A stretch of DNA of 64,000 nucleotides, taken from assembly GCA_021735655.1 (NCBI GenBank), contig JAIPGM010000008.1:5922-69921 (forward strand). The letters run 5' to 3'. The position numbers and the translations under genes are program-made. This document shows, piece by piece, positions 16,024 through 37,181 of this stretch. Under the pieces are notes generated by a model. It was not told the origin of the DNA and did not search any database. It worked only from the letters and a program-made list of their open reading frames with translations. Position 1 is the first letter of the stretch, and each line of letters opens with the position of its first letter. The stretch comes from Candidatus Omnitrophota bacterium. GTDB taxonomy: Bacteria > Omnitrophota > Gorgyraeia > Duberdicusellales > 4484-171.

Positions 16024-16057
16024 AGCCCCGTATCTTTAGAGTGCGGGGTTTTTATTT
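16024..16057 (+). terminator. Probable intrinsic terminator
   Basis: gccccg...cgggg hairpin followed by tttttattt. Confidence 0.45.
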
Positions 16058-17162: not shown

Positions 17163-17166
17163 AAAA

Positions 17167-17466: not shown

Positions 17467-17604
17467 AAAAATTTACAGTCACTCCTTAATCTGCTAATTT
17501 TTTAATATTTTTCATTCACAAACCCTAATTTTTGCGCTAAAATACTGTATAGCATAAGTTTAGTATAACTGCGATAACTGCGATAACTGTTAACAGGAGG
17601 AAAA

Positions 17605-17793
17605 ATGAGTGGTGAAATTTTAACTGTTGGCGATGTCTGTGAATATTTGAAGATACCACGTTCAACCCTTTATAAGCTTTCTAAAGATAAGATTATCCCG
17701 GCTTTTAGGGTTGGTCGGCACTGGCGTTTTCAAAAGGAAAAGATTGAAGCCTGGTTGGAGGGGCAAACTAGCGAAAAGGTTAGTCGGCAATAA
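17605..17793 (+). CDS. Excisionase/MerR-family helix-turn-helix DNA-binding protein
   Basis: LTVGDVCEYLKIPRSTLYKL...FRVGRHWRF is typical of the excisionase-family HTH_17; RBS aggagga. Confidence 0.65.
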   Translation: MSGEILTVGDVCEYLKIPRSTLYKLSKDKIIPAFRVGRHWRFQKEKIEAWLEGQTSEKVSRQ

Positions 17794-17794
17794 T

Positions 17795-18391
17795 ATGTGG
17801 TATTGGGTTTTTAAGCATATATTTTGGATTTTATTCACTGTCCTTTTTAGGCTTAAGGTAGAGGGTTTAGATAATTTACCGCAAAAGACAAATTTTATCT
17901 TAGCGGCTAATCATGCTAGTTTTTTAGACCCGCCTTGTATTATGGCTGGTATCCCAATGAGGGTTTATCCGATTGCCGCAAGACATCTTTATAAGGTAGG
18001 ATTAGTTGGCTGGTTTTTAAGAAAAATAAATGCTTTTTCAGCCGGAGGATCATCAAGCCTGGCAGTTAAACTGTTAATGGAAGGCAAGAATGTTGGTTTA
18101 TCTCCAGAAGGAAAAATCAGTCTTAATGGTCAACTTAATGAATTTAGAAGAGGGGTAGCTTTGTTAGCGGCAAAAACCGGTCGGCCGGTTGTTCCTTGCG
18201 CTATTTTTGGTGCTTACGAGGCTCTTCCTTATGAAGCTAAATTTCCTAAATTATTTTCACCAATTAAACTAAAGATAGGCAAACCAGTGTATCTTTTAAA
18301 GGAGTTTGATGATGAGATTGACCCTATCTATCTGCGCGAAGGTACTTTTAAGATTCAAAATACAATAAAGGAGTTACTTAATGAAGAATAA
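17795..18391 (+). CDS. Lysophospholipid acyltransferase (PlsC-like LPLAT)
   Basis: HXXXXD motif AANHASFLDP; PEGKIS motif. The ORF track starts at 17711, but Met at 17795 avoids overlap with the upstream HTH gene. Confidence 0.7.
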   Translation: MWYWVFKHIFWILFTVLFRLKVEGLDNLPQKTNFILAANHASFLDPPCIMAGIPMRVYPIAARHLYKVGLVGWFLRKINAFSAGGSSSLAVKLLMEGKNVGLSPEGKISLNGQLNEFRRGVALLAAKTGRPVVPCAIFGAYEALPYEAKFPKLFSPIKLKIGKPVYLLKEFDDEIDPIYLREGTFKIQNTIKELLNEE

Positions 18392-19967
18392 GGGTTTAGT
18401 AAAAATAATTGTTTCTCGGACCATACCAGCCGATATTCCTAGTATAGTTCGGGCCCTAAGCAAAGTTGAAGAATTCCCTGAATATATAGCGACAATTAAA
18501 CAGGCCTCAATAATAGAAAAATCCCGTAACAAGATGAAAACGAAATGGCTTGTTCAGGTTGACCATGTCCCAATAAGTTGGATAGAGGAAGACACTTTAA
18601 ATCTTATAAAAAATACGATTACTTTTAAAGCCGTCGAAGGGGATTTGCAAGAATTTAAGGGGGAGTGGAAGTTTCAGGCTAAGCCTGAAGGAACCTTGGT
18701 TACTGTGACTGCTTATTTAAGAATCGACATACCAGCGATAAAAGATTTCGTTAATACTTATGTAGAAAAGATGCTAGTTAAGAATTTTACGGCGATATTA
18801 AAAGGTATCGAGAAGCGTTTAATTTCAATAAGATATAAAGGCCAGGGAAAAGATGAGATTAAAAAGATAGCCGGATTTGGAATCATTGGCCATTTGTATA
18901 ATTTTTATCATTTGGAAAAGTGCCTTAAGATGCTCAACCCTGACTTTAAGATGCCTTCACGAGAATTTTTGGGAAATCTGTTTAACGTTACTCCTTCGTT
19001 CAAGCTTTACGATATAGTAGACTTTAAGTCTAAATCCGGAGGTAGCGTTGATGGATGTTTCATTGTTGCCACTTTTATTCCTGATTTAATTGAAAAAGAT
19101 ATCTGGTCGATATTTTCGAAGGTGGTCCGGGCCTGTAAGATTGCTGAGAAACACGGGGTTGGTATAGTTACCTTAGGTGGCTTTACTTCGATTGTTGCCG
19201 AGCGGATTGGTCAGGCAATTAGTGAACAGGTTAACGTTCCGATTACCACTGGAAATACCTTTACTGCCGCAATGACCTTAGAAGGAGTTTATCGGGCGGT
19301 TAGAGCTTTAAATTTAGATATTGGTTCGTTAAAGGTAGCTATCGTTGGCGGGACCGGAGACATTGGAAGTGCTTGTGCTCGAGTTTTAGCTGATCAGGTC
19401 AAACAATTGTCTATAACTGGTAGGACCAAAGCTAATTTAAAACAGCTTAAACAAGAACTTAGCAAAAAGCATAAAGCCAGGATAGTTGCAACTACTAATA
19501 ATAAAAAGGCAGTAAGTGATGCTGATGTAATTATTGCTGCAGCTAGTGCTACCGAGTCAATACTTTCGATAGATTGGTTTAAGCCAGGGGCGATAATTTG
19601 CGATGTCGGCTACCCAAAGAATATTTCTTATGCCCAGACCGAAAGAGATGATATTCTTATTTTTTCTGGAGGTCTAGCTCGGAGCCCTAGTTCAATTAAG
19701 CTTCCGATTGATTTAGGCTTACCGAACTCGGAAGTTATCTATGGTTGTTTTGCTGAGGCGATTATTTTGTCTTTAGAAAAGCGTTATGAAAACTACAGTT
19801 TTGGTCGGGGAAATATTACTCCTGAGAAAATTAAAGAAATAAAAGAGCTAGGAGAAAAACACGGCTTTGAAGTTTCCCGATTCTGGTGGGGTGACAGGCT
19901 GCTCGATCAAGCGGCTATCGACAGAATAAAAGAAAGAGTTAATCTTGGAAAAGAACAACTAATATAA
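18381..19967 (+). CDS. Fusion protein: N-terminal SRPBCC (polyketide cyclase/START-like) domain + C-terminal acyl-ACP reductase (cyanobacterial AAR family)
   Basis: aa 1-150 SRPBCC-like. aa ~165-528 matches recalled AAR blocks: GIIGHL, LGGFTSI, TTGNTFTA, IVGGTGDIGSA, DVGYPKN, putative catalytic Cys in YGCFAEAI, NYSFGRGNIT, HGFE. Confidence 0.7.
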   Translation: MKNKGLVKIIVSRTIPADIPSIVRALSKVEEFPEYIATIKQASIIEKSRNKMKTKWLVQVDHVPISWIEEDTLNLIKNTITFKAVEGDLQEFKGEWKFQAKPEGTLVTVTAYLRIDIPAIKDFVNTYVEKMLVKNFTAILKGIEKRLISIRYKGQGKDEIKKIAGFGIIGHLYNFYHLEKCLKMLNPDFKMPSREFLGNLFNVTPSFKLYDIVDFKSKSGGSVDGCFIVATFIPDLIEKDIWSIFSKVVRACKIAEKHGVGIVTLGGFTSIVAERIGQAISEQVNVPITTGNTFTAAMTLEGVYRAVRALNLDIGSLKVAIVGGTGDIGSACARVLADQVKQLSITGRTKANLKQLKQELSKKHKARIVATTNNKKAVSDADVIIAAASATESILSIDWFKPGAIICDVGYPKNISYAQTERDDILIFSGGLARSPSSIKLPIDLGLPNSEVIYGCFAEAIILSLEKRYENYSFGRGNITPEKIKEIKELGEKHGFEVSRFWWGDRLLDQAAIDRIKERVNLGKEQLI

Positions 19968-19977
19968 GCTAAAGTTT

Positions 19978-20976
19978 ATGAAAGTGCTAGTTACCGGAGC
20001 TGACGGGTTTTTAGGTTCAAATCTGATTAGGCATTTGCTTGTTGCCGGGCATAAGGTTAAGGCCTTGATCCACAGTGATAAGGATTACGATGCTTTAAGC
20101 GGGCTTAAGGTTGATAAGTTAAAAGGCGACGTCCTTAGTCCAAAGTCGATTGATAAGGCAATGGCTGGGATTGATGCTGTATTCCATCTAGCCTCTTTAT
20201 ATAAGTTTTATCCTTGGTGGCAGAAAAAGGCTGGTCAGATCTATAAAGTAAATGTTCAAGGCACAAGAAATGTTTTAAAAGCCGCCAAAAAAAACAATAT
20301 CAAACGTTTTATTTTTACCAGCAGTATTGCTTCTTTAGGTAAACAGCTTGGTAAAAAACCGAGCGACGAAACAACCGTGCTTAATCTAAAAAGTAGAATT
20401 AGTCACTATGCCCGTTCAAAAGTATTAGCTGAAAATGAAGTTTTGAGTTTTGTCAGACAAGGCTTACCGGCAATAATTTTAAATCCAGCAGCTTTAATCG
20501 GTGAACGTGATTTTAAGCCAACCCCAACCGGTCAGATGATTATAGATTTTTTAAATCATAAGCTTCCGGTGACTTTTAATGGGATGATACCGTTGGCTGA
20601 TGTTGATGATGTAGCTAGGGCTCACCTGGTAGCTCTTGATAGGGGTAGAGTCGGTGAGCGTTATATTCTTTGTAATAATCGGGCCTATCCTTTGAAGGAG
20701 TTATTTTATTTAGTTGAGCAAATATCCGGAGTTTCTGCTCCGCGGTTAAAGATACCTTATCCTTTGTTAATGAGTTTTCTTTATTTTGATGAGGTTTTTT
20801 CTTATTTTTTAAAGAAAAGACCGCTTTTATCGAGCTCGGCGGCAAGATTTTTCCGCCGGGCAACGGTATTTGATAATAGTAAGGCAGCCAGGGAGTTGAG
20901 TTATGCGACCACTCCGATTACTACTAGTTTAGAAAAGGCCGTTAACTGGTATAAGGAAAATAGCTATGTCCAATAA
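19978..20976 (+). CDS. NAD-dependent epimerase/dehydratase family (extended SDR) oxidoreductase
   Basis: Rossmann VLVTGADGFLGSNLIRHL; YxxxK in SHYARSK. Confidence 0.75.
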   Translation: MKVLVTGADGFLGSNLIRHLLVAGHKVKALIHSDKDYDALSGLKVDKLKGDVLSPKSIDKAMAGIDAVFHLASLYKFYPWWQKKAGQIYKVNVQGTRNVLKAAKKNNIKRFIFTSSIASLGKQLGKKPSDETTVLNLKSRISHYARSKVLAENEVLSFVRQGLPAIILNPAALIGERDFKPTPTGQMIIDFLNHKLPVTFNGMIPLADVDDVARAHLVALDRGRVGERYILCNNRAYPLKELFYLVEQISGVSAPRLKIPYPLLMSFLYFDEVFSYFLKKRPLLSSSAARFFRRATVFDNSKAARELSYATTPITTSLEKAVNWYKENSYVQ

Positions 20977-21038
20977 TAACAATTATAAGCTATCAAATAT
21001 TTATTGGCTTAGCTTGATCAAGTAGTTAAATAAGCAAT

Positions 21039-23162
21039 ATGTTAGATCTGATTTTTAATCCAGCTAATTATTATTGGAATCCTCATGCGGTTCTCTATCA
21101 TTTAGTAGGAATTCTTACTTTGCTTGAGGGCATTTTTATTTTTAGTCAGAATCGTAAATCCTTAGTAAATTTAGCCTATGGCCTTAGTTGTTTATCAGTT
21201 GCTCTTTGGCTTACCGGAACCGGCATGGCTTTAAACAGTAAACTTGAACTAACTGCTTTAATTTGGACCAGGACTTATTTCTTTTTAGGAGTAATATTTA
21301 ATACTCCTTCGATATACTTTTTTTCAGTTGCTTGGCAGAAATCGCTTTTTCCTCAAGAGGAAAACAAAAAAATAAAAATAGTAATTTTTAACTTTCTTTG
21401 CGGTTTGGGGTTCTATATTTTTTGTCTTAACTCTAATCTTTTTATCCAGGGTTTCTGGAATCATTCCTGGGGGTTTTACCCTAAGGCCGGCAGTCTTTAT
21501 TTTATTTTTGTCGGTTGGGTTTATGCTTTGATGATGCTTATGTTGTTTAATTTCATCCAGGTTTACCGCAAGGGGGGTGATCCGGTTATAAAAAAACAAG
21601 CTAAATTAATGATTATTGCTTTTTCGATTGGCTACCTGGGCACAGCCGAGTTTTTGATGGACTATGGATTTACTCTTTATTTTTTAGCCTTTATTCCGGT
21701 GTTTATCTGTATTACTATTGTCGGTTACAGCGTTATTCGCTATCGGACTATGGATATTGAAACGGTAATCCATAAGACCGCTTTATGGATTTTTTCTTAT
21801 TCGCTTATTGCGGCTCCGATATTTTTTCTCTATAACGGGCTGTCTGAGAAGATTGAGAGTTCTAACTTATTGTTGTTTATTTTTTGGACAGCTAGTTTTT
21901 TGGCGGTTACCGTTTATTTACGGTTAATTCAACCAAAAATTGATCATTTTTTCCAAAGACGTAAAGCTAATTTGGAAGACATTTCTAGTGAATTTACCAA
22001 AAATCTTGTCCATTTAAAGGGTCTTAATCAGCTAATCGAACGCATCAAAGAAACAATCACTAATGCTTTTTATCCGCAGAATATCGATATTTTAATCTAT
22101 GGCCAGGATGATGAAAGATATCAAGATGAGCCATTTTTGCTTTGGTTGGTTAAGAATGACAAAATTGCCTATCGTGATTTTATTGAAATCGATCCGGCTT
22201 ATTCAGCAATTCGTAGCGATGCCAGAAAATATTTCGACTCAGTAGCCGCAGCGGTAGTTGTTCCTTTAGTTTTAAATGAACGTCTTTTGGGGGTAATTAA
22301 TTTAACCAGAAAATCAAACCTAAAACGCTACGCTGCCGTAGATTTTAATTTTTTACGTCTGCTGAAAAACCAGTCGGCAATTGCTATATCTAACTCTTTA
22401 GTTTATGAGAACATTGAAGAGCAGGTTAAAAGGCGGACTGAGGAGTTAGTTGAGGTGCAGAAGCAATTGATTCAGGCTGGAAAATTAGCTACTGTTGGTA
22501 CTTTGGCTGGAGGAGTAGCTCATGAGATAAATAATCCTTTGGCGGCAATTTTAACTAATGCTCAGATGTTGCTTATGTCACCGGATGAGCTCAATGTTGA
22601 GGAGGCCCGTGAATCATTAGAGTTAATCGAAGAGGCGACCAAGCGTTGTCGAACCATCGTCAGAAAATTAATGACCTATGCTCGAAAACCAGTAGAATCA
22701 ACAACAATTTCTAAAATAAACCTTATTGATGTTGTCAATAAGGTGAAAGCCTTCCTTGATTATCAGTTTAAGCAGGAAAATATTCAAATAGTTGTCGTTG
22801 CTGAAACTAGCAACTATCCGGTAGTCGGCAATCAGAATGAGTTAGAGCAGGTGGTAACCAATATAGTTTTAAATGCCAAGGATGCTACGAAGCGGGTTAA
22901 AAAAAGCGGCATTATAGATATATCGTTAATGAGCAATGATGGTTGGATAAGGCTGGATATCAAAGATCAAGGCTCTGGCATTTCAAAAGACCATGCTTTA
23001 AAGATTTTTGACCCCTTTTTTACTACTAAAGACGTAGGAAAGGGGTTAGGTTTGGGTCTTTCAATATCACAGTCGATCATTGAGAAGTATAAGGGTTCGA
23101 TTTTTTTTCATTCTCAGGAAGGTGAGGGCACTATTTTTACCATAAATCTGCCTGAGGCCTGA
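21039..23162 (+). CDS. Sensor histidine kinase (multi-TM N-terminus, GAF-like middle, HisKA + HATPase_c)
   Basis: About 9 N-terminal TM helices; H-box GVAHEINNPLAAI; N-box NAKDA; G-boxes DQGSGI and GLGLGLSIS. Confidence 0.8.
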   Translation: MLDLIFNPANYYWNPHAVLYHLVGILTLLEGIFIFSQNRKSLVNLAYGLSCLSVALWLTGTGMALNSKLELTALIWTRTYFFLGVIFNTPSIYFFSVAWQKSLFPQEENKKIKIVIFNFLCGLGFYIFCLNSNLFIQGFWNHSWGFYPKAGSLYFIFVGWVYALMMLMLFNFIQVYRKGGDPVIKKQAKLMIIAFSIGYLGTAEFLMDYGFTLYFLAFIPVFICITIVGYSVIRYRTMDIETVIHKTALWIFSYSLIAAPIFFLYNGLSEKIESSNLLLFIFWTASFLAVTVYLRLIQPKIDHFFQRRKANLEDISSEFTKNLVHLKGLNQLIERIKETITNAFYPQNIDILIYGQDDERYQDEPFLLWLVKNDKIAYRDFIEIDPAYSAIRSDARKYFDSVAAAVVVPLVLNERLLGVINLTRKSNLKRYAAVDFNFLRLLKNQSAIAISNSLVYENIEEQVKRRTEELVEVQKQLIQAGKLATVGTLAGGVAHEINNPLAAILTNAQMLLMSPDELNVEEARESLELIEEATKRCRTIVRKLMTYARKPVESTTISKINLIDVVNKVKAFLDYQFKQENIQIVVVAETSNYPVVGNQNELEQVVTNIVLNAKDATKRVKKSGIIDISLMSNDGWIRLDIKDQGSGISKDHALKIFDPFFTTKDVGKGLGLGLSISQSIIEKYKGSIFFHSQEGEGTIFTINLPEA

Positions 23163-23223
23163 TAGGCTTGGTCTTTATGCGGTTTTAGTATATAATGTAT
23201 AGATTATAGAAAAAGGTAATAAA

Positions 23224-23670
23224 ATGAATGATTTTTGGGATGTAAATAAAATAAAGAAGGTTTTACCTAAAGACTATCCTTTTCTTTTTATCGATCGGGT
23301 AGTTGAGATTGATTTGGTTGAAAAAAGGATAAAAGGCCTAAAAAATATAACCGTTAATGAGCATTTCTTTTCAAACCACTTTCCTGGTAAACCAATTATA
23401 CCAGGGGCAATTCTGGTTGAGGCAGCCTATCAGGCGAGTATTATTCTTTGTGTTGCTCTTGGTGAGGATAGCCAGTTTAAGATCGATTACTGTTTAGATA
23501 AGGTAGAGGCCAGTTTTTTTAGTAAGGTTAGAGCCGGAGATCAACTTATTTTAGAGGCCAAAGCCGAGAAACTAACAGCTAAAACAGCAGCAGTCAGAGT
23601 GGTTGTTTCAGTAAGTGACAATAAGTGTGCCGAGTTAACTGTTTTTTTAAAGCTAAATAAAGGGGGCTAA
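23224..23670 (+). CDS. FabZ/FabA-like hot-dog 3-hydroxyacyl-ACP dehydratase
   Basis: FFSNHFPGKPIIPGAILVEAAYQ, the FabZ catalytic His region. Confidence 0.7.
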   Translation: MNDFWDVNKIKKVLPKDYPFLFIDRVVEIDLVEKRIKGLKNITVNEHFFSNHFPGKPIIPGAILVEAAYQASIILCVALGEDSQFKIDYCLDKVEASFFSKVRAGDQLILEAKAEKLTAKTAAVRVVVSVSDNKCAELTVFLKLNKGG

Positions 23671-23671
23671 G

Positions 23672-24049
23672 ATGGTTAAAAGAATTTTAATTATTGAAGA
23701 TGAACAGATAATAACTAAAAGTTTACAGCGTTTGCTAAAAAAAGAAGGTTATCAGGTAGAGATTTCTAATAACGGGGCAGATGCTCTTGAGAAAATAAAG
23801 GCTGGAGAGTTTAATTTAATAGTCAGCGACATTAGAATGCCAGATATGGATGGCATTGAGACAATTAAAGCTATTCGAAAGTCTCTCACCGAGCAGGGCA
23901 AGCCTTTGATTCCTGAGATATTAATTACCGGTTATGCTGATGAGTCTAAATATCAGGAAGCTTTGGAGCTAAAAGTTGCCGATTACCTCTATAAACCTTT
24001 TGACATTAAAGATTTCCTAGAGGCAGTTAGGAGAAATATCAATGCTTAA
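23672..24049 (+). CDS. Single-domain response regulator receiver
   Basis: ILIIEDE, LIVSDIRMPDMDG, conserved K in YLYKP. Confidence 0.8.
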   Translation: MVKRILIIEDEQIITKSLQRLLKKEGYQVEISNNGADALEKIKAGEFNLIVSDIRMPDMDGIETIKAIRKSLTEQGKPLIPEILITGYADESKYQEALELKVADYLYKPFDIKDFLEAVRRNINA

Positions 24050-24779
24050 AGGAAAAACTGCAATTATTAGCGGAGCCAGCCGTGGCATTGGCCGGGCTAT
24101 TGCAATGAAATTAGCCACCGAAGGTGCAAATATATCTTTTAGTTATTTAAACAGCAAAGTTGCTGCTGATAAATTAGAAAATGAGATCAATTCGCTGGGT
24201 GTAAAAGCTAAGGGCTATCAATTAGATATAAAGGATTTTGACTCAGTAAGTAAGTGGGTCAGTGATACTAAGGAAAGTTTCGGTGGTTTAGACATCATAG
24301 TTAATAATGCCGGAATTATTATTGATAAAGCTCTGGCCTTGATGGAACACTCAGATTGGAAGAGTGTTTTAGATACTAATTTAGGCGGTTTATTTAACTT
24401 AACCCGGGCAGCAATTATAACTTTAATAAAACAAAGGTCCGGTCAAATTATTAACATTACTTCGGTAACCGGAATGGTCGGGATGGCTCGTCAGACGAAT
24501 TATGCGGCAACTAAGGCCGGAATCATCGGCTTTACCAAGTCTTTGGCCAGAGAAGTTGGTTCTTATAATATAAGAGTTAATGCGATTGCTCCGGGCTTTA
24601 TTGAAACTGATATGCTCAGCGGCCTAAAAGATAAATATCGAGAAGATGTCACTCAACAAATTCCTTTGCGGCGGTTTGGCAAGCCTGAAGAAGTCGCTGG
24701 TTTGGTAAGTTTTTTGGCTAGTGAAAAAGCAGACTATATTACCGGCCAGGTAATAGTTGTTGATGGCGGGATGACTTAA
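24042..24779 (+). CDS. fabG: 3-oxoacyl-ACP reductase (FabG-type SDR)
   Basis: GASRGIGRAIA, NNAG, YAATKAG catalytic YxxxK. Confidence 0.85.
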   Translation: MLKGKTAIISGASRGIGRAIAMKLATEGANISFSYLNSKVAADKLENEINSLGVKAKGYQLDIKDFDSVSKWVSDTKESFGGLDIIVNNAGIIIDKALALMEHSDWKSVLDTNLGGLFNLTRAAIITLIKQRSGQIINITSVTGMVGMARQTNYAATKAGIIGFTKSLAREVGSYNIRVNAIAPGFIETDMLSGLKDKYREDVTQQIPLRRFGKPEEVAGLVSFLASEKADYITGQVIVVDGGMT

Positions 24780-24782
24780 TTT

Positions 24783-26015
24783 ATGGATAAAACTGTTGTT
24801 GTAACTGGAGTCGGCGTACTTTCTCCAAACGGGATTGGCAAAGCTGCTTTTTGGCAGGCCTTAAAAGATGGTAAGTCGGGAATTAAGCCGATTACTATTT
24901 TTAATCCTGGTTTTTTTAAGAGTAAACAAGCCGGAGAGATATCTGATTTTAAGGCTGAGGAGTTTTTAGGGACAAAAGGACTTCAAAATACCGATCGAGC
25001 TACTAAATTAGTTTGTTCAGCCTCAAAGTTGGCCCTGGAGGATTCAGAGTTAAATATCACTGAGCGAAACACCGACAATATTGGAGTAGTTACCGGGACC
25101 ACACTTTCATTATGGAATATTGCTGAATTGAGTCGGGAAATGGTTGAAGACGGCCCGCAATTTGTTACTGCCGGAATTTTTCCCGGAACTACCATAAATA
25201 GCGCATCGAGCCAGATATCAATTCGTCATAAGATTAAAGGTTTTAATACTACGATTTCAACCGGCTATACTGCGAGCCTAGATGCTCTTAAATATGCTAC
25301 AAATTTCATTAAGCTTGGCCGAGCAAAGGCAGTTTTAGTCGCTGGAGTTGAAGGTTTAACTTTTGCCGGGTTTACTGGTTTTTATAAGATTGGTTTTTTA
25401 GCCGGCATAAAGGGGGAGGAAATATCCTGTCCTTTTGATAAAAGAAGGAATGGAATCGTTTTAGCTGAGGCAGCAGTAGTTTTAGTTGTTGAAGATGCTG
25501 AGCACGCTGAGGCCAGAGGAGCTAAGATTTATGCTGAGCTAGCTGCCATTGAGAATTCATTTGATGCTTTTCGGGCTGCTAAATATGAGCCTCAGGCTAG
25601 TGGTTTAAAAAGAACGATGCTTAAAGCTTTAAAGTCAGCTAAGCTGCATGGGGAAGATATTGATTATGTTTCTTCAGCGGCTAATTCAGTTCCTCAGCAG
25701 GATGCTTTAGAGACTATGGCAATAAAGGAAGTTTTTAATATTTATGCTGAGAAGACTCCGGTAAGCGCAATTAAGTCAATGGTTGGTGAGTCGGTGAGTG
25801 CCGGAGGAATCATGCAACTGACAGCCGCTTTAGGTTCCCTTGAAGAAGGGTTTATCCCGCCGACAATAAATTATCGAGAAAAAGATCCTGAATGTGACCT
25901 TGACTACGTAGTTAATCAGGCTAGATCGCAAGAAGTAAACAATATATTAGTGAATAATTTTGGTCCTGGCGGCAATAATGCCACGGTTGTCGTCAAAAAA
26001 TACGGAGGTGTATAG
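24783..26015 (+). CDS. Ketosynthase-like chain-length-factor (KS-beta / ApeC-like), catalytically inactive
   Basis: Thiolase fold, but active-site Cys replaced (ISTGYTASLDA) and both His positions lost (SAANSVPQQD; KSMVGESVSAGG). Confidence 0.7.
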   Translation: MDKTVVVTGVGVLSPNGIGKAAFWQALKDGKSGIKPITIFNPGFFKSKQAGEISDFKAEEFLGTKGLQNTDRATKLVCSASKLALEDSELNITERNTDNIGVVTGTTLSLWNIAELSREMVEDGPQFVTAGIFPGTTINSASSQISIRHKIKGFNTTISTGYTASLDALKYATNFIKLGRAKAVLVAGVEGLTFAGFTGFYKIGFLAGIKGEEISCPFDKRRNGIVLAEAAVVLVVEDAEHAEARGAKIYAELAAIENSFDAFRAAKYEPQASGLKRTMLKALKSAKLHGEDIDYVSSAANSVPQQDALETMAIKEVFNIYAEKTPVSAIKSMVGESVSAGGIMQLTAALGSLEEGFIPPTINYREKDPECDLDYVVNQARSQEVNNILVNNFGPGGNNATVVVKKYGGV

Positions 26016-26266
26016 TGGTACCCGAAGATTTAGGAAAACAAATTAAGGATATAGTCGCAAGAGTTATTGAAATTGAGCTTGATCAGGTTACTCCCGATGC
26101 TGACTTTATTAATGATTTGGGAGTAGATTCTTTGAAGGCAATTGAGATTACCGGAGCCATTGAGAAAGCCTTTCGGGTAGTTGTGCCGGAAGAAAAGATT
26201 CGTGATATTCGCACCCTTAACCAGGCGATCAGTTTAACTCAGCAGCTGCTCCAAGCAAAAGGATAA
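26015..26266 (+). CDS. Acyl carrier protein
   Basis: 83 aa; phosphopantetheine attachment LGVDSLKAIEI. Confidence 0.8.
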   Translation: MVPEDLGKQIKDIVARVIEIELDQVTPDADFINDLGVDSLKAIEITGAIEKAFRVVVPEEKIRDIRTLNQAISLTQQLLQAKG

Positions 26267-26268
26267 GA

Positions 26269-26718
26269 TTGAAAATGACTTGGGATAAAGAAAAAGTAAA
26301 GTCTATTCTGCCGCAAAGAGAACCTTTTTTATTTATTGATGAGGTAATTGAGGTAGATGAAGGTAAAAGAATAGTTGCTAAGAAGTATCTTGATCCTAAA
26401 GCTGATTTTTTCAAGGGGCATTTTCCCGGTAATCCGGTTATGCCTGGGGTTTTAACTATTGAAGCTATGGCTCAGGCGGCAATATTAGTTTATTCAACCG
26501 CAAAACCAGAAATAGCCAAGAAGAGGCCAGATTATTATTTTGGTAGCGTTAAGGCAAAGTTTAAATTGCCAGTTTTTCCTAATGAAACATTAATTTTAGA
26601 GGCCGAAATTATTAAAGTTACTGATTTTGGCGGAGTAGTAGATACAATTGCCAGAGTAAAAGATAAAGTAGTAGCTCAAGCAAGCAGTACTTTTGGGGTG
26701 AAGTTGAGAGATGAATAA
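26269..26718 (+). CDS. FabZ-like 3-hydroxyacyl-ACP dehydratase
   Basis: FFKGHFPGNPVMPGVLTIEAMAQA canonical FabZ motif. Confidence 0.8.
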   Translation: MKMTWDKEKVKSILPQREPFLFIDEVIEVDEGKRIVAKKYLDPKADFFKGHFPGNPVMPGVLTIEAMAQAAILVYSTAKPEIAKKRPDYYFGSVKAKFKLPVFPNETLILEAEIIKVTDFGGVVDTIARVKDKVVAQASSTFGVKLRDE

Positions 26719-27931
26719 CGATAGACGAGTAGTGGTAACTGGTATTGGGGTAATCTCAGCAGTTGGTAATGGCAAAGAGACTTTCTGGAAAGCAATCAAG
26801 GAGGGAAAGTCCGGAATAAGCGAAATTACTTCAATGGATACTTCAGTTTATAAGTGCCACTTAGGTGGTGAGGTGAAGGATTTTAATCCTGAAGAGTTTA
26901 TTCCTAAGCGGAGAATAAAATTTCTTGGGAGATCTTCTCAACTAGCCATAGCTGCATCAAGTCTCGCTTTAAAAGATGCTAAGCTTGACTATAAAAGCAC
27001 TGAAAGAAAGGAAATGGGGGTTATTGTTGGGACAACTACTGGCGAACGACCCTTGGAGGAGCTTTTAGCCTCTTGGGCTAAGGGTGGCTTTAAAGATGTT
27101 GACCGGGCAAAAGTATTTCAAGCCACAGTGAATAATATTTCGGCTAATGTTGGAATAGAGTTTAAGGCTCGAGGGGTAAATTATCTTATTCCTACGGCTT
27201 GCGCTGCCGGAAATTACGCAATCGGTTGTGGATTTGATTTAATTAGAAGTGGGGATTTAAACTTTGCTTTAGTTGGCGGAGCCGATGCTTTTTCTAAATT
27301 TGCTTTTACCGGGTTTCAAAGGATTTATGCTATGAGCCCTGACTTTATGCGTCCTTTTGATAAAAATAGAAGAGGGATGATGCAGGGGGAAGGTTCGGGA
27401 ATGCTTCTCCTAGAGTCTTACAAATCAGCTAAGAAAAGAGGTGCTGATATCTATGCTGAGGTTTTAGGCTATGGCTTATCTTGTGATGCTTATCATGCGA
27501 CAGCACCTGATCCAAAAGGAATAGCTAAAGTTATGGAGAAGGCCTTAGCTGAGACCGGCCTAACCTATAAAGATGTAGATTATATTTGTGCTCATGGAAC
27601 CGGAACCGGTCCAAATGATAAGGCCGAGTGCATAGGTATTAAGGCGGTTTTTAAAGAACGCTCTAAAGAGATTATGGTTAGTTCAATAAAATCTATGCTT
27701 GGTCATGCTATGGGGGCAGCTTCGGCAATTGAAGCAGCTGCTTGTTGCCTAGCGGTCAAAGATGATATCGCGCCGCCAACCATAAACTATGAGACCCCTG
27801 ATCCTGATTGTGACATAGATTGTGTCCCGAATAAAGCCAGAAAGGCAAAGATTAATGTAGCCCTTAATAATGGTTTTGCTTTTGGCGGTAACAATGCCTG
27901 CGTGGTTATTAAAAAAATAGAAGATGCCTAA
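26711..27931 (+). CDS. Beta-ketoacyl-ACP synthase (KAS I/II-type, Cys-His-His)
   Basis: Active Cys TACAAGNYA; His AHGTGTGPND; His KSMLGHAMGAAS; C-terminal GFAFGGNNA. Confidence 0.85.
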   Translation: MNNDRRVVVTGIGVISAVGNGKETFWKAIKEGKSGISEITSMDTSVYKCHLGGEVKDFNPEEFIPKRRIKFLGRSSQLAIAASSLALKDAKLDYKSTERKEMGVIVGTTTGERPLEELLASWAKGGFKDVDRAKVFQATVNNISANVGIEFKARGVNYLIPTACAAGNYAIGCGFDLIRSGDLNFALVGGADAFSKFAFTGFQRIYAMSPDFMRPFDKNRRGMMQGEGSGMLLLESYKSAKKRGADIYAEVLGYGLSCDAYHATAPDPKGIAKVMEKALAETGLTYKDVDYICAHGTGTGPNDKAECIGIKAVFKERSKEIMVSSIKSMLGHAMGAASAIEAAACCLAVKDDIAPPTINYETPDPDCDIDCVPNKARKAKINVALNNGFAFGGNNACVVIKKIEDA

Positions 27932-29405
27932 TAAATATGACGTTATAGTTATTGGCGCTGGGATCGGCGGATTAACTGCTGCTGCCATACTAGCCAGAAA
28001 TGGCAAAAAGGTGTTGGTTTTGGAGAAGAATCCTATAGCCGGAGGTTATGCGGTTAATTTTAAGAGGGGTGAGTTTGAGTTTGATGCTTCTTTACATTTG
28101 CTAAACGGGTTTTTTCCTGGAAAACCAACTTATCACTTTTTGCAATTAGCCGGAATTGATAATAAAGTAACTTTTTTAAAACCCGAATATCTTTATCGTT
28201 CAGTTTTTCCGGATTACGATATCAGAGTGCCACAATGTGACCCTAAAGCCTATATTAATATTTTAGCTAAATATTTTCCTAAAGATAAGCCCAAGCTTGA
28301 AGAATTATTTAGTTTGATGTATCGTATATTTTGTCGAATTCAAGATATCGAAGGTGACAAAATATCACCGGCTGAGTTAACTGGTTATATCGGTAAGACC
28401 CATCAAGATGTTTTAGATGAATTCAAAATTAGTAATCAGCTGGCCGCTTTAATATCACAAGTTTGGCCTTTTATTGGTACCCCGCCGTCTCAGCTTCCTT
28501 TTTTAGTTTTTTTGTCATCTTTCAGTGATTTTATTTACAATGGTGGATATTATCCGAAAGGCGGCGGCCAAGCAATTTCAGATGCTTTGGTTGATGTAAT
28601 TTGTGAGAACCAAGGAGAAGTTATTTTCAAAGAAAAGGTTAGCAAAATTCTTATCGAAGGTAATTCAGCGTATGGTTTAGTGGACCAATTCGGTAATGAG
28701 TTTTTTGCCAAAGAAATAATTTCAAACATTGATGCTAATTTTCTTTTCGGTGAGTTGATTGAAAATAAATATTTGCCTAGTGATTTTTTAGATAAAGTTT
28801 CTCGTTTTAAGCCATCAATTTCGGCTTTCCAGGTTTACTTAGGTTTAGATATCGAAGCAGGCAAACTCGCTATAAACGACTATACTATATTTTCTAATCC
28901 TGACTATGACTTATCTAAACAATATCAAGAATCTTTGGTTAATAATGTTGAGGTGGTTCCTATAGAAATAAGTTTTCATAACTCTCTGTTTGATTCTGGC
29001 TTTCCTAAATCAAGCACTTTGAGTATAGTTTCTTTGGCCGGCTATGATTTTTGGCAAAATCTATCAAAACAAGAATATGCGGTAAAAAAGAAAAAATTGG
29101 CCGATATTTTAATTAAGCGAGCTGAAGACTTTATTCCTGGTTTATCGGGAAGGATTAAATTGATTAATATAGCTACGCCAATTACTATGGAGCGTTATAC
29201 CGGGAATTCAGCTGGTGCTATTTATGGTTGGAGCCAAACTATGGATCAATATGGTTCAAAGAGGATGCGGCAGAATACACCAATTGATAATCTTTTTCTT
29301 GTTGGAGCCTGGACTAGACCAGCAGGAGGAGTTTCTGGGGCAATGCAATCCGGAGCAATGGTATCGAAAAAAATCCTAATTAATGCAGCTAATGTCAAAA
29401 AATAA
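27924..29405 (+). CDS. FAD/NAD(P)-dependent oxidoreductase, phytoene-desaturase (CrtI)-like family
   Basis: N-terminal dinucleotide fold VIVIGAGIGGLTAAAILARNGKKVLVLEKNPIAGG; length and C-terminal pattern typical of the CrtI/amine-oxidase superfamily. Confidence 0.7.
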   Translation: MPNKYDVIVIGAGIGGLTAAAILARNGKKVLVLEKNPIAGGYAVNFKRGEFEFDASLHLLNGFFPGKPTYHFLQLAGIDNKVTFLKPEYLYRSVFPDYDIRVPQCDPKAYINILAKYFPKDKPKLEELFSLMYRIFCRIQDIEGDKISPAELTGYIGKTHQDVLDEFKISNQLAALISQVWPFIGTPPSQLPFLVFLSSFSDFIYNGGYYPKGGGQAISDALVDVICENQGEVIFKEKVSKILIEGNSAYGLVDQFGNEFFAKEIISNIDANFLFGELIENKYLPSDFLDKVSRFKPSISAFQVYLGLDIEAGKLAINDYTIFSNPDYDLSKQYQESLVNNVEVVPIEISFHNSLFDSGFPKSSTLSIVSLAGYDFWQNLSKQEYAVKKKKLADILIKRAEDFIPGLSGRIKLINIATPITMERYTGNSAGAIYGWSQTMDQYGSKRMRQNTPIDNLFLVGAWTRPAGGVSGAMQSGAMVSKKILINAANVKK

Positions 29406-30702
29406 AAGAATTGTTGTTACTGGATTGGGTCCTTTGTCAGCCATTGGTATGGGCAAGGAGGCTTTATGGAAGTCTGTTTTAGCAGAAAAGACGGGATTGA
29501 CTTTAGAAAAATACAGTATCAATGGTCAGGAATTGGGTGACTATTATGCCCATCGGATCAAAGATTTTGATATTAACGATTTTAATATTGATAAAAATAT
29601 TTTGGAAGATATTAAGGCTTGGAAAGAGCAAGCTAATCCCATCGATCTTTTTTATCTTTTGGCTGTAGTTAAGTTAGCTCTGAGTGATTCCAAAATAAAC
29701 TATACTAATAGAGCTGAAACAGAAAGATTAGGGTTGATAGTAACGCATGAGAATCCTGGCCTAGACCAATTCTATGAAGAAGTCATAAACGAGTCTTATG
29801 ATTTTCTAGTAAAGGGTAATAATAGTGTAATTTCTCGGAAGGATTATTTTCAAGAATTTTATCGAAAATTCGCCAAACGCGGTTACGAACTCCAGACTTT
29901 TATGCCGCTTTTTCATTTAGCTAAAGTTTTTAATATCCATAATTACTCTATATTCTTATGCAATGCTTGTGCTTCGGGTTTATTTGCCGTCGAGGCAGCC
30001 GCTGATATTATTAAAAGTGGTAAATGTAACACAGTTGTGGTTGCCGGGTCAGATTGTACCAGTATTTTTAAATATCTTTGGTTCAAAGGATTAGATATGT
30101 ATGCTGAAGATGGTAAGATAAAGCCCTTTGCTAAAAATAGGAATGGTTTTGTTACTGGCGATGGTGGAGCTGGCATCGTATTAGAAGATTTATATAGCGC
30201 GTTAGAAAGAGGCGCTCATATTTATGCTGAATATTTAGGAGGAGGATTTCATTTAGAGGGTTGGAAAGTTGCTATGCCGGAGATAAACGGTGATTCATAC
30301 AAAAAAGCTATCATGCAATCTTTGCAAAGAAGTGATGTTCCAAAAGAGGCAATCGATTTACTTGTACCTCATGGCGTGGGAACTACGGCTGCCGATTATT
30401 ATGAGGCAAAGGCTATTACGAGTATATTTGGTAAAAATTGTAAAAAACCTTTAATGGCAGCTTTGAAGCCTTATATCGGCCATAATTTGGGAAGCACAGC
30501 CCTATTGGAATTAGCAATTTCAATATTAGCTTTAGAGAATAATTATTTACCAAAAACACTCAATCTTACCGAAGTTGATCCAAAATTAGGAGTTAATTTA
30601 GTGACTACTTCTAAAGCTTATGATATGCGAACATTGATGAAGACAGCTTGTGGATTTGCCGGTTACAATGGTTCAGTTATTCTAAAAAAATATACTAAAT
30701 GA
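29383..30702 (+). CDS. Second beta-ketoacyl synthase-like protein with divergent N-terminal region
   Basis: Cys in NACASGLFA; His in PHGVGTTAAD and YIGHNLGSTA. First ~110 aa unlike FabF; start overlaps the upstream gene. Confidence 0.7.
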   Translation: MQLMSKNKRIVVTGLGPLSAIGMGKEALWKSVLAEKTGLTLEKYSINGQELGDYYAHRIKDFDINDFNIDKNILEDIKAWKEQANPIDLFYLLAVVKLALSDSKINYTNRAETERLGLIVTHENPGLDQFYEEVINESYDFLVKGNNSVISRKDYFQEFYRKFAKRGYELQTFMPLFHLAKVFNIHNYSIFLCNACASGLFAVEAAADIIKSGKCNTVVVAGSDCTSIFKYLWFKGLDMYAEDGKIKPFAKNRNGFVTGDGGAGIVLEDLYSALERGAHIYAEYLGGGFHLEGWKVAMPEINGDSYKKAIMQSLQRSDVPKEAIDLLVPHGVGTTAADYYEAKAITSIFGKNCKKPLMAALKPYIGHNLGSTALLELAISILALENNYLPKTLNLTEVDPKLGVNLVTTSKAYDMRTLMKTACGFAGYNGSVILKKYTK

Positions 30703-32891: not shown

Positions 32892-33028
32892 TAAGATAAA
32901 TGGTATATCCCTCGCGCCTAAATATTCGAAAAATTTCTACGATATTTTTCGAAGGCGCTTCGGGATCAATTCTAATGAGACTGTAATTTTTCTCAATCAA
33001 TGAGAAAAATTACATAGTCGAATTATCA

Positions 33029-33406
33029 TTGAGGAGGTACAATATGAATAAAGTTTTAATAGTTGATGATGAAGTCGAAATTACCGAGTTTCTATGCAAT
33101 TTTTTGAATCGTTTTGATATAGTTAATGAAAGAGCTTCTGATGCCAAAACTGCTTTAGATAAGTTTAACAAATTAAAGCCTAACTGGGTTTTATTGGACA
33201 TAAAGATGCCGGGCATGGATGGGTTTGAGTTGTTGGCAGAGTTTAAAAAAATAAACTCAAACATAAAGGCAATGATGATTACTGGAAAAGATGACAAGGA
33301 ATCGCAAGATCGCGCTAAAAAGTTAGGAGCCCTAGATTACATTTTTAAGCCTTTGGATTTAGATGAATTACATCAGAAAATTAAAACTCATATTCTTAAA
33401 AAATAA
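33029..33406 (+). CDS. Single-domain response regulator receiver
   Basis: VLIVDDE, VLLDIKMPGMDG, K in IFKP. ORF track starts at 33029; a Met a few codons in (MNKVLIV) is equally possible. Confidence 0.8.
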   Translation: MRRYNMNKVLIVDDEVEITEFLCNFLNRFDIVNERASDAKTALDKFNKLKPNWVLLDIKMPGMDGFELLAEFKKINSNIKAMMITGKDDKESQDRAKKLGALDYIFKPLDLDELHQKIKTHILKK

Positions 33407-33417
33407 TTTAGAATAAG

Positions 33418-34605
33418 ATGCCGAAAAAAAAGAAACCTGACTATGGAAAAGGCTTAGAACAAGCTGCTAAGCAGATGATTCTAATCCGCCGGGTGGATAC
33501 TCTGATTAAGCTCATTTTACGAAGCATTATCAAAAATATAAAAGTTGAGCATGCTGGCCTTCTTTTGTATGATAAGTCAAAAGATGCTTATATAGTTACT
33601 GTTTCTAGGGGGAAGGGCGGAATAAAGATACCGGCCGGCCTTACTAAGATAAGCAAAGGTAATGCATTGGTCAGATACTTTACTGATAAAAAACTAAGAA
33701 TTTTTGGTGAGCAACCCCTTATTTTGGAAAAAATAAGTGCTTATCTTAATTCTGAAAGGCCTAAAGGTACTAAAAATTTAAGAATTTTTTTAAGGGACGT
33801 AATCTTTCAGCTCTCACTTTATAATGCTAGAGCTTGCATTGCCGGGTTTTTTAGAGAAGAGTTAATATTTATTCTTTTTTTAGGTCGAAAGATTAATCTC
33901 AAACGATTTAATCAAGACGAGTTAGGATTTTTATCAGTTTTAAGTTCAGATGCAGTAATGGCTATTCAGAATGCCTGGTACTTTCAGGATTTAGATAAAC
34001 AGCTTCACAAAAACAAGAATTTATTTTTACAGACTGTTATGGCTTTAGCCACAGCGATTGAAGCTAAGGATAAATATACTTCCGGTCATACCGAGCGGGT
34101 ATCGCACTACTCTTTGCTTATAGCTCAAGAGATAAAAGCAGTGCGCAGTAATGCCCAAAAAGATTGGGATAGATTTTCAGAGGATTTGAGAATAGCCTCA
34201 TTACTTCACGATATTGGTAAAATTGGCCTTCGCGAAGGAGTACTCAATAAGGAAGGTATTTTAACTGACGAGGAAAGAAGCGAGATGCAACGGCATCCTT
34301 TAGTTGGGTCGTCAATATTGAATCAAGTTGATGAATTTCAAGATCCTATTTTGGGGGTGAAGTATCATCATGAGCGATACGATGGCAAGGGCTATCCTGA
34401 GGGTTTAAAGGGAAACAAAATACCTTTGATAGCTCAGATAATTGCCGTTGCTGATACTTATGACGCTATGACTTCCGATCGTCCTTACAGAAGAGGGATG
34501 TCTAAGAAGCAGGCTATACAGGAGATTCGCAAGAACAAGGCTAAGCAATTTTCTCCTTTGGTGGTCGATGCTTTTTTAAAACTTTACAAAGAGGGAAAGA
34601 TATAG
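33418..34605 (+). CDS. GAF-domain + HD-GYP c-di-GMP phosphodiesterase
   Basis: HD motif LLHDIGKIGL; HHERYDGKGYPEGL (GYP); N-terminal GAF-like region. Confidence 0.8.
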   Translation: MPKKKKPDYGKGLEQAAKQMILIRRVDTLIKLILRSIIKNIKVEHAGLLLYDKSKDAYIVTVSRGKGGIKIPAGLTKISKGNALVRYFTDKKLRIFGEQPLILEKISAYLNSERPKGTKNLRIFLRDVIFQLSLYNARACIAGFFREELIFILFLGRKINLKRFNQDELGFLSVLSSDAVMAIQNAWYFQDLDKQLHKNKNLFLQTVMALATAIEAKDKYTSGHTERVSHYSLLIAQEIKAVRSNAQKDWDRFSEDLRIASLLHDIGKIGLREGVLNKEGILTDEERSEMQRHPLVGSSILNQVDEFQDPILGVKYHHERYDGKGYPEGLKGNKIPLIAQIIAVADTYDAMTSDRPYRRGMSKKQAIQEIRKNKAKQFSPLVVDAFLKLYKEGKI

Positions 34606-37158: not shown

Positions 37159-37181
37159 CTTATAGACTTATTCAAGTAAAC

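Follow-up and report, generated by a model that had tools for sequence, protein, structure and literature searches.

Organization of the gene cluster

We analyzed a 64,000-nucleotide stretch of a Candidatus Omnitrophota genome (assembly GCA_021735655.1, contig JAIPGM010000008.1, positions 5,922 to 69,921 of the forward strand; referred to below as the window), which has a G+C content of 37% and carries a cluster of lipid-synthesis genes interleaved with signaling genes. Open reading frame (ORF) calls combined with Pfam and NCBIfam matches revealed an unbroken run of 17 plus-strand genes at 17605-34605, about 17 kb in length, with neighbors spaced by -23 to +137 bp. The genes are arranged in the order helix-turn-helix (HTH) protein, acyltransferase (AT), SRPBCC domain fused to an acyl-ACP reductase (AAR; ACP, acyl carrier protein), short-chain dehydrogenase/reductase (SDR), histidine kinase (HK), FabZ1, receiver, FabG, catalytically dead ketosynthase (KS), ACP, FabZ2, active KS, flavoenzyme, third KS (KS3), HK, receiver, and HD-GYP protein. 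All the genes listed in the first-pass annotation of this DNA are present and tightly packed on the plus strand; the unit extends to 34605, beyond the 13 kb block ending at 30702 that the annotation had described. Its proposal of a dissociated type II system resembling a polyketide synthase (PKS) agrees with the gene content, which includes a KS paired with a chain-length factor (CLF), a dedicated ACP, a ketoreductase (KR), two dehydratases (DHs), an LPLAT-type acyltransferase, an AAR-type reductase, and a CrtI-family flavoenzyme.

Terminator-like hairpins lie 5' of the unit (16024-16050) and at its end (34633..34654, plus strand; 9-bp stem followed by a T-run), and a sigma-70-like promoter match (TTCACA-17-TAAAAT; 17515..17543, plus strand) precedes the HTH gene, all three being consensus matches only. 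Because the number of promoter-like sites in the window equals that expected from shuffled sequence, only the bracketing terminators were used, as weak evidence of the boundaries. No riboswitch or other RNA element was found in or before the operon with Rfam. Pfam scans of the window ORFs indicated that FabD, FabH, and enoyl reductase are absent across the whole 64 kb, so that a standard fab operon is not seen, and Acc genes are likewise missing from the window. The 17 genes contain no Pfam match to a thioesterase, an exporter, or a methyltransferase, as the first-pass annotation had noted; the nearest methyltransferase gene (15277-15999) lies outside the unit, past the terminator-like site.

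The synthase genes and anammox Cluster I

By sequence comparison, the nearest known system to the synthase genes is Cluster I of anammox bacteria, not the aryl-polyene/flexirubin clusters. Cluster I is the putative ladderane cluster, represented in K. stuttgartiensis by kuste3603-3608, which encode amxACP, amxFabZ, amxFabF2, amxFabFmut, a PDH, and a B12 radical SAM enzyme (rSAM), respectively. The relationship is drawn from the ranking of the KS and CLF matches, the matches of FabZ2 and ACP, a Glu residue in the dead KS, an Ile residue in the FabZ proteins, and the likeness of the flavoenzyme to kuste3607 and kuste3336. The likeness to aryl-polyene/flexirubin clusters that had been suggested earlier holds for the list of parts and gives way in the choice of nearest system, with the KS, CLF, FabZ, and ACP ranking closest to Cluster I.

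Comparison of the active KS (26711..27931, plus strand), which retains the Cys-His-His residues, with all solved structures revealed chain B of PDB entry 9s5h as the best match (470 bits, 55% identity), followed by Iga11 (6kxd, 343 bits) and FabF enzymes (about 318 bits). The dead KS (24783..26015, plus strand), its presumed partner and CLF-like, best matches chain C of the same entry (371 bits, 46% identity), with the next PDB match at 257 bits. Entry 9s5h fits the B. fulgida amxFabF2/amxFabFmut heterodimer (bioRxiv 10.64898/2026.05.19.726425), an assignment made because the catalytic residues lie at the numbering of that paper plus 5, chain C carries Val/Asn/Glu, and Brocadia genomes encode a 94%-identical protein. 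The operon and Cluster I both combine an active KS (amxFabF2 type) with a dead, CLF-like KS (amxFabFmut type) of the same subfamily. In the window dead KS, the catalytic triad reads Tyr/Ala/Glu (Cys to Tyr, His to Ala, and His to Glu), and the Glu at the second catalytic His is invariant in a 12-sequence alignment of the subfamily, as in Kuste3606. Across 56 anammox loci, the triad is Val or Thr, Asn or Cys, and Glu; the dead KSs of both systems have a hydrophobic residue in place of the Cys and Glu in place of the second His. The tunnel residues Phe135 and Val139 of amxFabFmut correspond to Phe and Thr in the window protein.

FabZ2 (26269..26718, plus strand) is of the amxFabZ type, its best five PDB matches all being amxFabZ (112-107 bits) and the next reaching 91.5 bits. 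The dedicated ACP (26015..26266, plus strand; PP-binding, 54.9 bits) has the serine of the DSL motif, and its top three PDB matches are the amxACP entries 7qv0_D, 7auf, and 9s5i_E (60.3, 54, and 50 bits), ahead of canonical ACPs at 49-43 bits; the amxFabZ and amxACP entries in the PDB are identified in the amxFabZ paper. FabZ1 (23224..23670, plus strand) contains a FabA domain (79 bits) with the motif HFPGKPIIPGAILVEAAYQASI. Both window FabZ proteins have Ile seven residues past the catalytic Glu, as do all 52 of the 52 FabZ proteins from anammox clusters. The Gly-to-Ile exchange (Ile69), which narrows the substrate tunnel, has been called typical of amxFabZ (PMC10139942).

The flavoenzyme (27924..29405, plus strand; Amino_oxidase, 63.5 bits) is an FAD enzyme of the CrtI/CrtISO family that can be described as PDH-like. 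Its best curated model is the carotenoid isomerase TIGR02730, with a score of 159 bits that lies far under the cutoff of 587, and its PDB matches include CrtD (74 bits) and CrtI (60 bits). It aligns with kuste3607 at 31% identity (146 bits) and with kuste3336 at 28% (153 bits), compared with 39 bits to Pantoea CrtI. The enzyme thus appears to resemble kuste3607 and kuste3336, its candidate orthologues, and not CrtI. A function as carotenoid desaturase was rejected on the score to CrtI together with the finding that the anammox PDH homologues did not complement crtI (PMC4790861). The CrtI-like call of the first-pass annotation, like its AAR call, holds at the level of the superfamily.

FabG (24042..24779, plus strand) scores over the equivalog cutoff of the 3-oxoacyl-ACP reductase model TIGR01830 (311.8 vs 297.75 bits). 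The three KSs fall under the cutoff of the FabF equivalog TIGR03150 (434.7, 340.7, and 211.5 vs 493.75 bits), and the two FabZ proteins under that of TIGR01750 (121 and 112 vs 155 bits). At the subfamily level, the active KS passes PRK07314 (424.6 vs 387 bits) and FabZ2 passes PRK00006 (119.8 vs 113 bits). KS3 (29383..30702, plus strand) keeps Cys-His-His intact and has a divergent, longer N-terminal half, the extra length lying ahead of the catalytic Cys. This region had been described as a novel N-terminus; it proved to be a divergent N-terminal KS subdomain and no new domain, with Pfam ketoacyl-synt spanning residues 8-272 (80.6 bits). More than 1800 homologues of KS3 were found at 50-69% identity, from Omnitrophota (nearly all the named ones) and a Nitrospirae metagenome-assembled genome (MAG).

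The operon and Cluster I also share a FabZ with the Gly-to-Ile tunnel residue, the order ACP-FabZ-KS...PDH is collinear, and both appear to have a dedicated ACP and an adjoining flavoenzyme of the CrtI family that is not CrtI. In the operon, the dead KS lies upstream of the ACP instead of after the KS, a FabG, a second FabZ, and a third KS are added, and an acyltransferase, an SRPBCC-AAR protein, and an SDR are present, with the whole embedded in HK, receiver, and HD-GYP genes. The host belongs to Omnitrophota and not to Brocadiales, the flavoenzymes share about 30% identity, and the operon does not contain the B12 rSAM, no match to kuste3608 being found in the scanned ORFs of the window.

Related loci in other genomes

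One genome per GTDB species was scanned with a CLF alignment headed by amxFabFmut and a single peptide pattern, and the window proteins together with kuste3607 and kuste3608 were mapped onto 88 loci (designated by L numbers). Brocadiales ranked first (62-94% identity), followed directly by Omnitrophota, some MAGs labeled Planctomycetales, and Thermodesulfovibrionia (46-51%). In a quick neighbor-joining tree of this one protein, the CLFs of Omnitrophota, the Planctomycetales-labeled MAGs, and Thermodesulfovibrionia form the sister group of the anammox CLFs. The anammox loci are uniformly ordered ACP-FabZ-KS-CLF-PDH-rSAM. The non-anammox loci comprise two types. In type A (n = 18), the dead KS, FabG, and FabZ stand alone in a housekeeping context with neither a KS partner nor kinases, and the FabZ tunnel residue is Ala or Cys; type B (n = 10) includes a KS partner, with a flavoenzyme in 6 loci and kinase or receiver genes alongside in 8. 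Orthologues of kuste3608 at 73-95% identity were detected by tblastn in 50 of the 56 anammox loci (threshold, at least 50% identity) and in 0 of the 10 type B loci. In a few type A loci, rSAM matches at 22-26% identity lie several kb away and represent unrelated rSAMs.

The block FabG-CLF-ACP-FabZ-KS-flavoenzyme-KS3-kinase-receiver-HD-GYP was also found in other Omnitrophota and in a Nitrospirae MAG. L089 and L087 (ENA contig) carry the order HTH-AT-AAR-SDR-formyltransferase-HK-response regulator (RR)-FabG-CLF-ACP-FabZ-KS-PDH-KS3-HK-RR-HD-GYP-RR. In L086 (GCA_028707125.1, a 1.26 Mb Omnitrophica contig), a GMC oxidoreductase replaces the SDR and KS3 lies ahead of the flavoenzyme, and in L004 the KS and CLF are 89-91% identical to those of the window. 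The Nitrospirae MAG (L088) has FabG-CLF-ACP-FabZ-KS-PDH-KS3-7TM (seven-transmembrane) kinase-kinase-receiver/HD-GYP at 51-66% identity and does not contain the AT-AAR genes. The gene arrangement is not due to chance, since the same order recurs at 51-91% amino-acid identity on independent contigs (L004, L086, L087/L089, and L088). As the whole architecture recurs and the synthase or AT-AAR part is also found without the other, the operon can be described as a fusion of three recurring modules.

The related loci differ in their accessory genes, which include a class-III aminotransferase with an alpha/beta hydrolase in L081 (8537-15510), a formyltransferase in L089 (8582-9472), a GMC oxidoreductase in L086 (2319-3587) and L005, and an Aas-like AMP-binding-ACP-acyltransferase protein in L004 (11577-14252) and L005. 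This variety suggests different end products derived from a shared aldehyde or acyl-ACP intermediate. Small genes for PF05635 proteins (23S rRNA intervening-sequence protein) occur inside the cluster at differing positions in L086 (11323-11682) and L087 (6411-6758). The type A trio (L061, L062, L064, L066, L069, L072, L076, and others; around 9990-12430 in each) lies among genes such as the rib operon and ligA, its dead KS having Phe/Asn/Glu and no active KS being present within 10 kb; it is carried by many Omnitrophota MAGs and by Planctomycetales-labeled MAGs. L043 (CAXMPV010000082.1), labeled Thermodesulfobacteriota, shows the full ACP-FabZ-KS-CLF-PDH-rSAM order with 66% identity to amxFabFmut and most likely represents a misbinned Scalindua contig. 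When the dead KS was compared with a 50%-identity library, its best matches included P0121, P0123/P0272, and about 40 other proteins of some 800-870 residues with two KS-like halves, one of which is named from a MAG of a Candidatus Helarchaeota (Asgard) archaeon.

The putative off-loading genes

The unit begins with a small DNA-binding protein of the HTH_17 family (excisionase/MerR-like; 17605..17793, plus strand; PF12728, 66.1 bits), whose gene is syntenic 5' of the acyltransferase in L001-L005, L086, and L089. The acyltransferase (17795..18391, plus strand; PF01553, 78.7 bits) is a membrane-anchored protein of the PlsC/Aas type with the HX4D motif NHASFLD; its ORF opens at a TTG at 17711, and the Met at 17795 is the likelier start. 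In NCBIfam it scores best against acyl-[ACP]--phospholipid O-acyltransferase (PRK08633/PRK06814), in the acyltransferase domain. It shares this domain and the HX4D motif with the Aas-type acyl-ACP:lysophospholipid acyltransferases (E. coli Aas family), and in the relatives L004 and L005 a full AMP-binding-ACP-acyltransferase protein is encoded beside the AAR gene. Unlike Aas, the window protein is a stand-alone domain of about 200 residues with one N-terminal membrane helix.

The next gene (18381..19967, plus strand) encodes an SRPBCC domain (START-like, lipid-binding; Polyketide_cyc, 45 bits) fused to a thioester reductase of the AAR/PigE N-terminal type (PigE, 182 bits). The AAR domain matches AAR structure 6jzu (133 bits), with the catalytic Cys294 of S. 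elongatus AAR aligned (YGCFAEA) and the NADPH motif kept (GGTGDIGS, for GxTGDIGS). The protein thus shares fold family, catalytic Cys, and NADPH motif with the cyanobacterial AAR (TIGR04058) and the PigE N-terminal reductase, and presumably also the chemistry that converts an acyl-thioester to an aldehyde. It differs in the N-terminal SRPBCC fusion and in a score of 172.9 bits against TIGR04058, under the equivalog cutoff of 449.7. The aminotransferase fused in PigE is lacking, and a class-III aminotransferase adjoins the related cluster L081. No aldehyde-deformylating oxygenase domain was found in the scanned window ORFs. More than 1000 homologues of the SRPBCC-AAR protein exist at 63-74% identity, the named ones being nearly all from Omnitrophota.

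The extended SDR that follows (HpnA/3-beta-HSD-like; 19978..20976, plus strand; Epimerase, 138.9 bits; 3Beta_HSD, 101 bits) is a candidate aldehyde or keto reductase that scores 324.7 bits against HpnA TIGR03466, under the cutoff of 367.65. At other loci, its slot is filled by a GMC oxidoreductase or an Aas-like protein. The HTH-AT-SRPBCC/AAR module is conserved across Omnitrophota on its own, and in L001 and L003 the genes HTH-AT-AAR(-SDR)-kinase-receiver occur with no synthase genes nearby. Directly 5' of the HTH-AT-AAR genes in the window (16452-17466, plus strand) lie a LOG-family gene (Lysine_decarbox/SLOG) and a gene for a 99-residue CxxC...CxxC protein with no Pfam match; this pair is kept at 84%/95% identity in L004 (8083-9059) and at 74%/81% in L005 (3265-4412).

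Two-component and c-di-GMP genes

The first sensor kinase (21039..23162, plus strand) has the domain order HisKA_7TM-GAF-HisKA-HATPase (HisKA_7TM, 41.4 bits; cutoff, 28.6), and a single-domain receiver (23672..24049, plus strand; Response_reg, 97.8 bits) follows FabZ1. At the end of the unit lie a second kinase (30699..32891, plus strand), in which Pfam indicated a multi-transmembrane N-terminus, GAF, and HATPase, a second single-domain receiver (33029..33406, plus strand; Response_reg, 96.7 bits), and an HD-GYP protein (HD_5, 121.9 bits; 33418..34605, plus strand), presumably a cyclic di-GMP (c-di-GMP) phosphodiesterase. Orthologues of the second kinase in L086, L087, and L088 have HisKA_7TM, and the HD-GYP gene is syntenic in L087, L082, and L088.

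The interleaving of two-component genes with lipid genes reported in the first-pass annotation was confirmed. The kinase and receiver had been regarded as inserted into the operon; instead they belong to the conserved gene set of the cluster family, also in a second phylum, and a chance insertion was rejected on this ground. HK or RR genes lie next to 8 of the 10 type B loci, to none of the 18 loci with only CLF-FabG-FabZ, and to only a small number of anammox loci. The window encodes a second c-di-GMP protein (GGDEF and HD-GYP; 47006-48568, plus strand), whose gene is surrounded by type II secretion/pilin-like genes carrying N_methyl motifs (43291-43839, 49626-50255, and 51784-52416). Such signaling genes are therefore common in the genome, which tempers the weight of adjacency alone.

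Two-component circuits linked to lipids include the control of desaturation by DesK/DesR and the sensing of diffusible signal factor (DSF) fatty-acid signals by RpfC/RpfG with its HD-GYP domain. By analogy, the membrane kinases, receivers, and HD-GYP protein of the window, tied genetically to putative acyl-unsaturation enzymes, may resemble these circuits, from which they differ in that the receivers lack an output domain and the kinases belong to the HisKA_7TM-GAF type. The operon might also make, and itself sense, a lipid signal resembling DSF.

Proposed pathway

We consider it probable that the 17-gene operon combines a Cluster I-like synthase module, an off-loading module, and a kinase/receiver/HD-GYP module, and that it makes an unsaturated chain that is either handed to a lipid or converted by reduction into an aldehyde or alcohol. 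The active and dead KSs would, like amxFabFhet, form a KS/CLF heterodimer, which would be primed through decarboxylation of malonyl-ACP and elongate short chains bound to the dedicated ACP. In anammox bacteria, the corresponding heterodimer decarboxylates malonyl-amxACP, and it favors C6-C8 probes. FabG and the narrow-tunnel FabZ proteins would carry each round to the enoyl intermediate. With no enoyl reductase encoded in the cluster, the chain would remain unsaturated or become conjugated, in the manner of polyene type II PKSs. The flavoenzyme, which is CrtISO-like, might isomerize, desaturate, or selectively saturate the chain, and KS3 might perform the other part of the elongation.

The synthase part may be compared with the highly reducing (polyene) type II PKS for ishigamide (Iga10-Iga16), in which a KR and a DH accompany a KS/CLF heterodimer and an enoyl reductase is lacking, as would be the case here. 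Among solved structures, Iga11 is the second-best match of the window KS, and it is reported to be the closest structural homologue of amxFabF2 (bioRxiv 10.64898/2026.05.19.726425). Unlike the ishigamide system, the window operon has DHs of the FabZ type, no amide-forming or tailoring enzymes, and release of the AAR or acyltransferase type, and it is not actinobacterial.

Two routes of release can be proposed. In the first, the Aas-like acyltransferase would move the chain from acyl-ACP to a (lyso)lipid acceptor. In the second, the AAR domain would yield an aldehyde, which the SRPBCC domain may hold and the SDR would convert to an alcohol. An aldehyde at the branch point would fit the genes that follow AAR in the relatives, namely a GMC oxidoreductase, an Aas-like protein, or an added formyltransferase, with a class-III aminotransferase in one case. 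Expression or activity of the pathway might be tied to the sensing of membrane state or signals through the 7TM-GAF kinases and c-di-GMP. Judged from gene content, the product might be an aldehyde or alcohol or a polyunsaturated lipid.

Several points weigh against this pathway. The best PDB match of FabZ1 is amxFabZ 8ayb at 90.7 bits, with canonical FabZ nearly equal at 86 bits, and the preference of the ACP for amxACP over canonical ACPs appears modest (60 vs 49 bits). The flavoenzyme, a candidate orthologue of the anammox PDHs, is just about 30% identical to them, and the genome scan used one peptide pattern and kept the best 80 of 322 loci. The AT-AAR module, synthase-free in L001 and L003, may act on ordinary acyl-ACP, in which case its adjacency to the synthase may be regulatory and not based on a shared pathway. 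The presumed preference for short chains is carried over from anammox enzymes measured in non-physiological assays, and genes elsewhere might supply a housekeeping enoyl reductase able to saturate the chain. The searched literature contained no lipid or biochemical data for Omnitrophota; no fab genes were found in the supplements of the Ace Lake Omnitrophota paper, and lipids are not discussed in the Omnitrophota overview paper.

Alternative explanations

The genes could instead serve an anaerobic unsaturated-fatty-acid branch for bulk membrane lipids, in which the FabZ proteins, the flavoenzyme, and the dedicated KS would set the double bond at short or medium length, the housekeeping fatty-acid synthase (FAS) would finish the chain, and the 7TM kinases would be DesK-like. 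Such a branch would follow the logic of FabA/FabB, FabN/FabO, or FabX, with tuning in the manner of DesK. The KS3 and AAR families, widespread across the phylum at 50-74% identity, fit core physiology better than a secondary metabolite; FabG over its equivalog cutoff, the KS over its subfamily cutoff, and the co-occurrence of kinases with the module point the same way, as does the description of Omnitrophota as anaerobic fermenters or acetogens (PMC8542988, PMC10066038). We nevertheless regard this explanation as unlikely. A dedicated ACP, a CLF, and reductive release of the AAR type are foreign to known pathways of this kind, the receivers lack a DNA-binding output domain, the distribution of the module is patchy, with only AT-AAR at some Omnitrophota loci (L001 and L003), and an isomerase activity cannot be read from sequence. 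A housekeeping type II FAS operon accompanied by PlsC is more doubtful still. The FabG equivalog, the high conservation of the families, and the CLF-FabG-FabZ trios found among housekeeping genes (rib operon, ligA) in many Omnitrophota would agree with it, but FabD, FabH, enoyl reductase, and Acc genes are absent from the window, the three KSs and both FabZ proteins score under their equivalog cutoffs, and one KS is dead. Moreover, the KS, FabZ, and ACP are nearest to specialized anammox paralogues, which occur in genomes that also encode canonical FabF, FabZ, and ACP, and the housekeeping-context trios differ from the operon in lacking a KS partner and in having Ala or Cys, not Ile, as the FabZ tunnel residue.

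An aryl-polyene/flexirubin-type pigment cluster was dismissed as highly improbable. The parts agree, as both systems contain two complementary KS systems (KS/CLF and a solo KS), an ACP, a KR, two DHs, and an LPLAT-type acyltransferase, FabZ2 alone scores just over the Pfam ApeI-like cutoff (30.9 vs 28.5 bits), and the SDR model of the FlxB type reaches 258.7 bits. However, the FabA domain score of FabZ2 (93 bits) is threefold its ApeI-like score, the FlxB score lies under its cutoff of 340, and ApeP-like reaches 19.1 bits, under 27, so that the family-specific models lie at or under their cutoffs. The unit also lacks an aryl-starter ligase, an ammonia lyase, a thioesterase, a LolA/MMPL-type exporter, and a methyltransferase, and the KS/CLF pair is nearest to amxFabF2/amxFabFmut, then to Iga11 and FabF. 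In favor of a production of ladderane lipids outside anammox bacteria, the operon has diagnostic residues and four or five of the six kinds of protein known from Cluster I, and antiSMASH tags such clusters as "ladderane" (PMC9902471). We find such production scarcely credible and dismissed it for want of the rSAM, since the enzyme proposed to catalyze cyclobutane formation, kuste3608, was found neither in the window nor at any related non-anammox locus, and ladderanes are known solely from anammox bacteria. A broader proposal, which we hold to be speculative and improbable, is that the operon is a self-contained lipid-and-signaling circuit and an evolutionary precursor of the ladderane pathway. 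The core chain would then be the intermediate that anammox bacteria hand to the B12 rSAM and that Omnitrophota and Nitrospirota release as an aldehyde or alcohol or a membrane lipid, with the 7TM kinases sensing its level and reporting through HD-GYP and c-di-GMP. If so, adding the anammox rSAM to the operon could reconstitute the first cyclobutane-forming steps.

Relation to previous work

Synteny of anammox clusters with Desulfotalea was described by Rattray et al. (2009), and a 2023 survey reported expressed antiSMASH "ladderane" biosynthetic gene clusters in several phyla, including Omnitrophota MAGs, which were left unanalyzed (PMC9902471). The earlier statement that such a lipid is not described for this lineage is only partly true in view of the latter report. 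Our literature search found no description of a match to amxFabF2, amxFabFmut, and amxFabZ at the level of residues, of the consistently missing rSAM, of FabG and KS3 as additional genes, of the joining of the SRPBCC-AAR/acyltransferase genes with the synthase, or of the cross-phylum coupling to two-component and HD-GYP genes. As of 2026, ladderane biosynthesis is unsolved, with neither in vitro reconstitution nor genetics. The Cluster I enzymes have been described as unique to ladderane producers, and their KS/CLF pair as the first chain-length factor in a fatty-acid pathway.

The present comparison indicates that the specialized KS/CLF, the narrow-tunnel FabZ, the dedicated ACP, and the PDH-like flavoenzyme occur as a set in Omnitrophota and some Nitrospirota in which the rSAM is lacking, and this distinguishes the anammox-specific rSAM from a pre-existing module. 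In these genomes, the set is joined in one transcription unit by the missing KR, a further KS, and explicit enzymes for release. The operon is a compact, expressible gene set whose product would show what the Cluster I core makes, and its rSAM-free composition provides a natural comparison for working out the Cluster I product. It also represents a candidate phylum-wide, uncharacterized lipid trait of Omnitrophota, with an unusually tight genetic link between lipid synthesis and two-component/c-di-GMP signaling. It reveals no new principle but provides a practical entry point to an unsolved biosynthetic problem and to the lipids of a whole candidate phylum.

Other features of the window

Directly past the operon terminator lies a tRNA-Ser(GGA) gene (34664-34754), detected by ARAGORN only, and a large serine recombinase is encoded at 34620-36188 on the minus strand. 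The recombinase is followed by a stretch of low G+C content (31-32%) with inverted GC skew, in which a ClpP/NfeD-like protease (37182-38384, minus strand) and an Mrr-type restriction endonuclease (40782-41882, minus strand) are encoded; the region 34620-43300 looks like an island integrated at the tRNA-Ser gene. A complete group I intron (60725-60969, plus strand; Rfam, 79 bits against a gathering threshold of 50; G+C up to 43%) overlaps the 3' end of another ORF encoding a large serine recombinase (60827-62680, minus strand), and no host tRNA or rRNA exon was identified for it. Upstream of the operon, an ORF of 1068 residues with no Pfam match (8237-11443, plus strand) lies 5' of genes for an alginate-export-like porin (11841-13223) and a TPR/Poly_export/SLBB protein (13353-15248).

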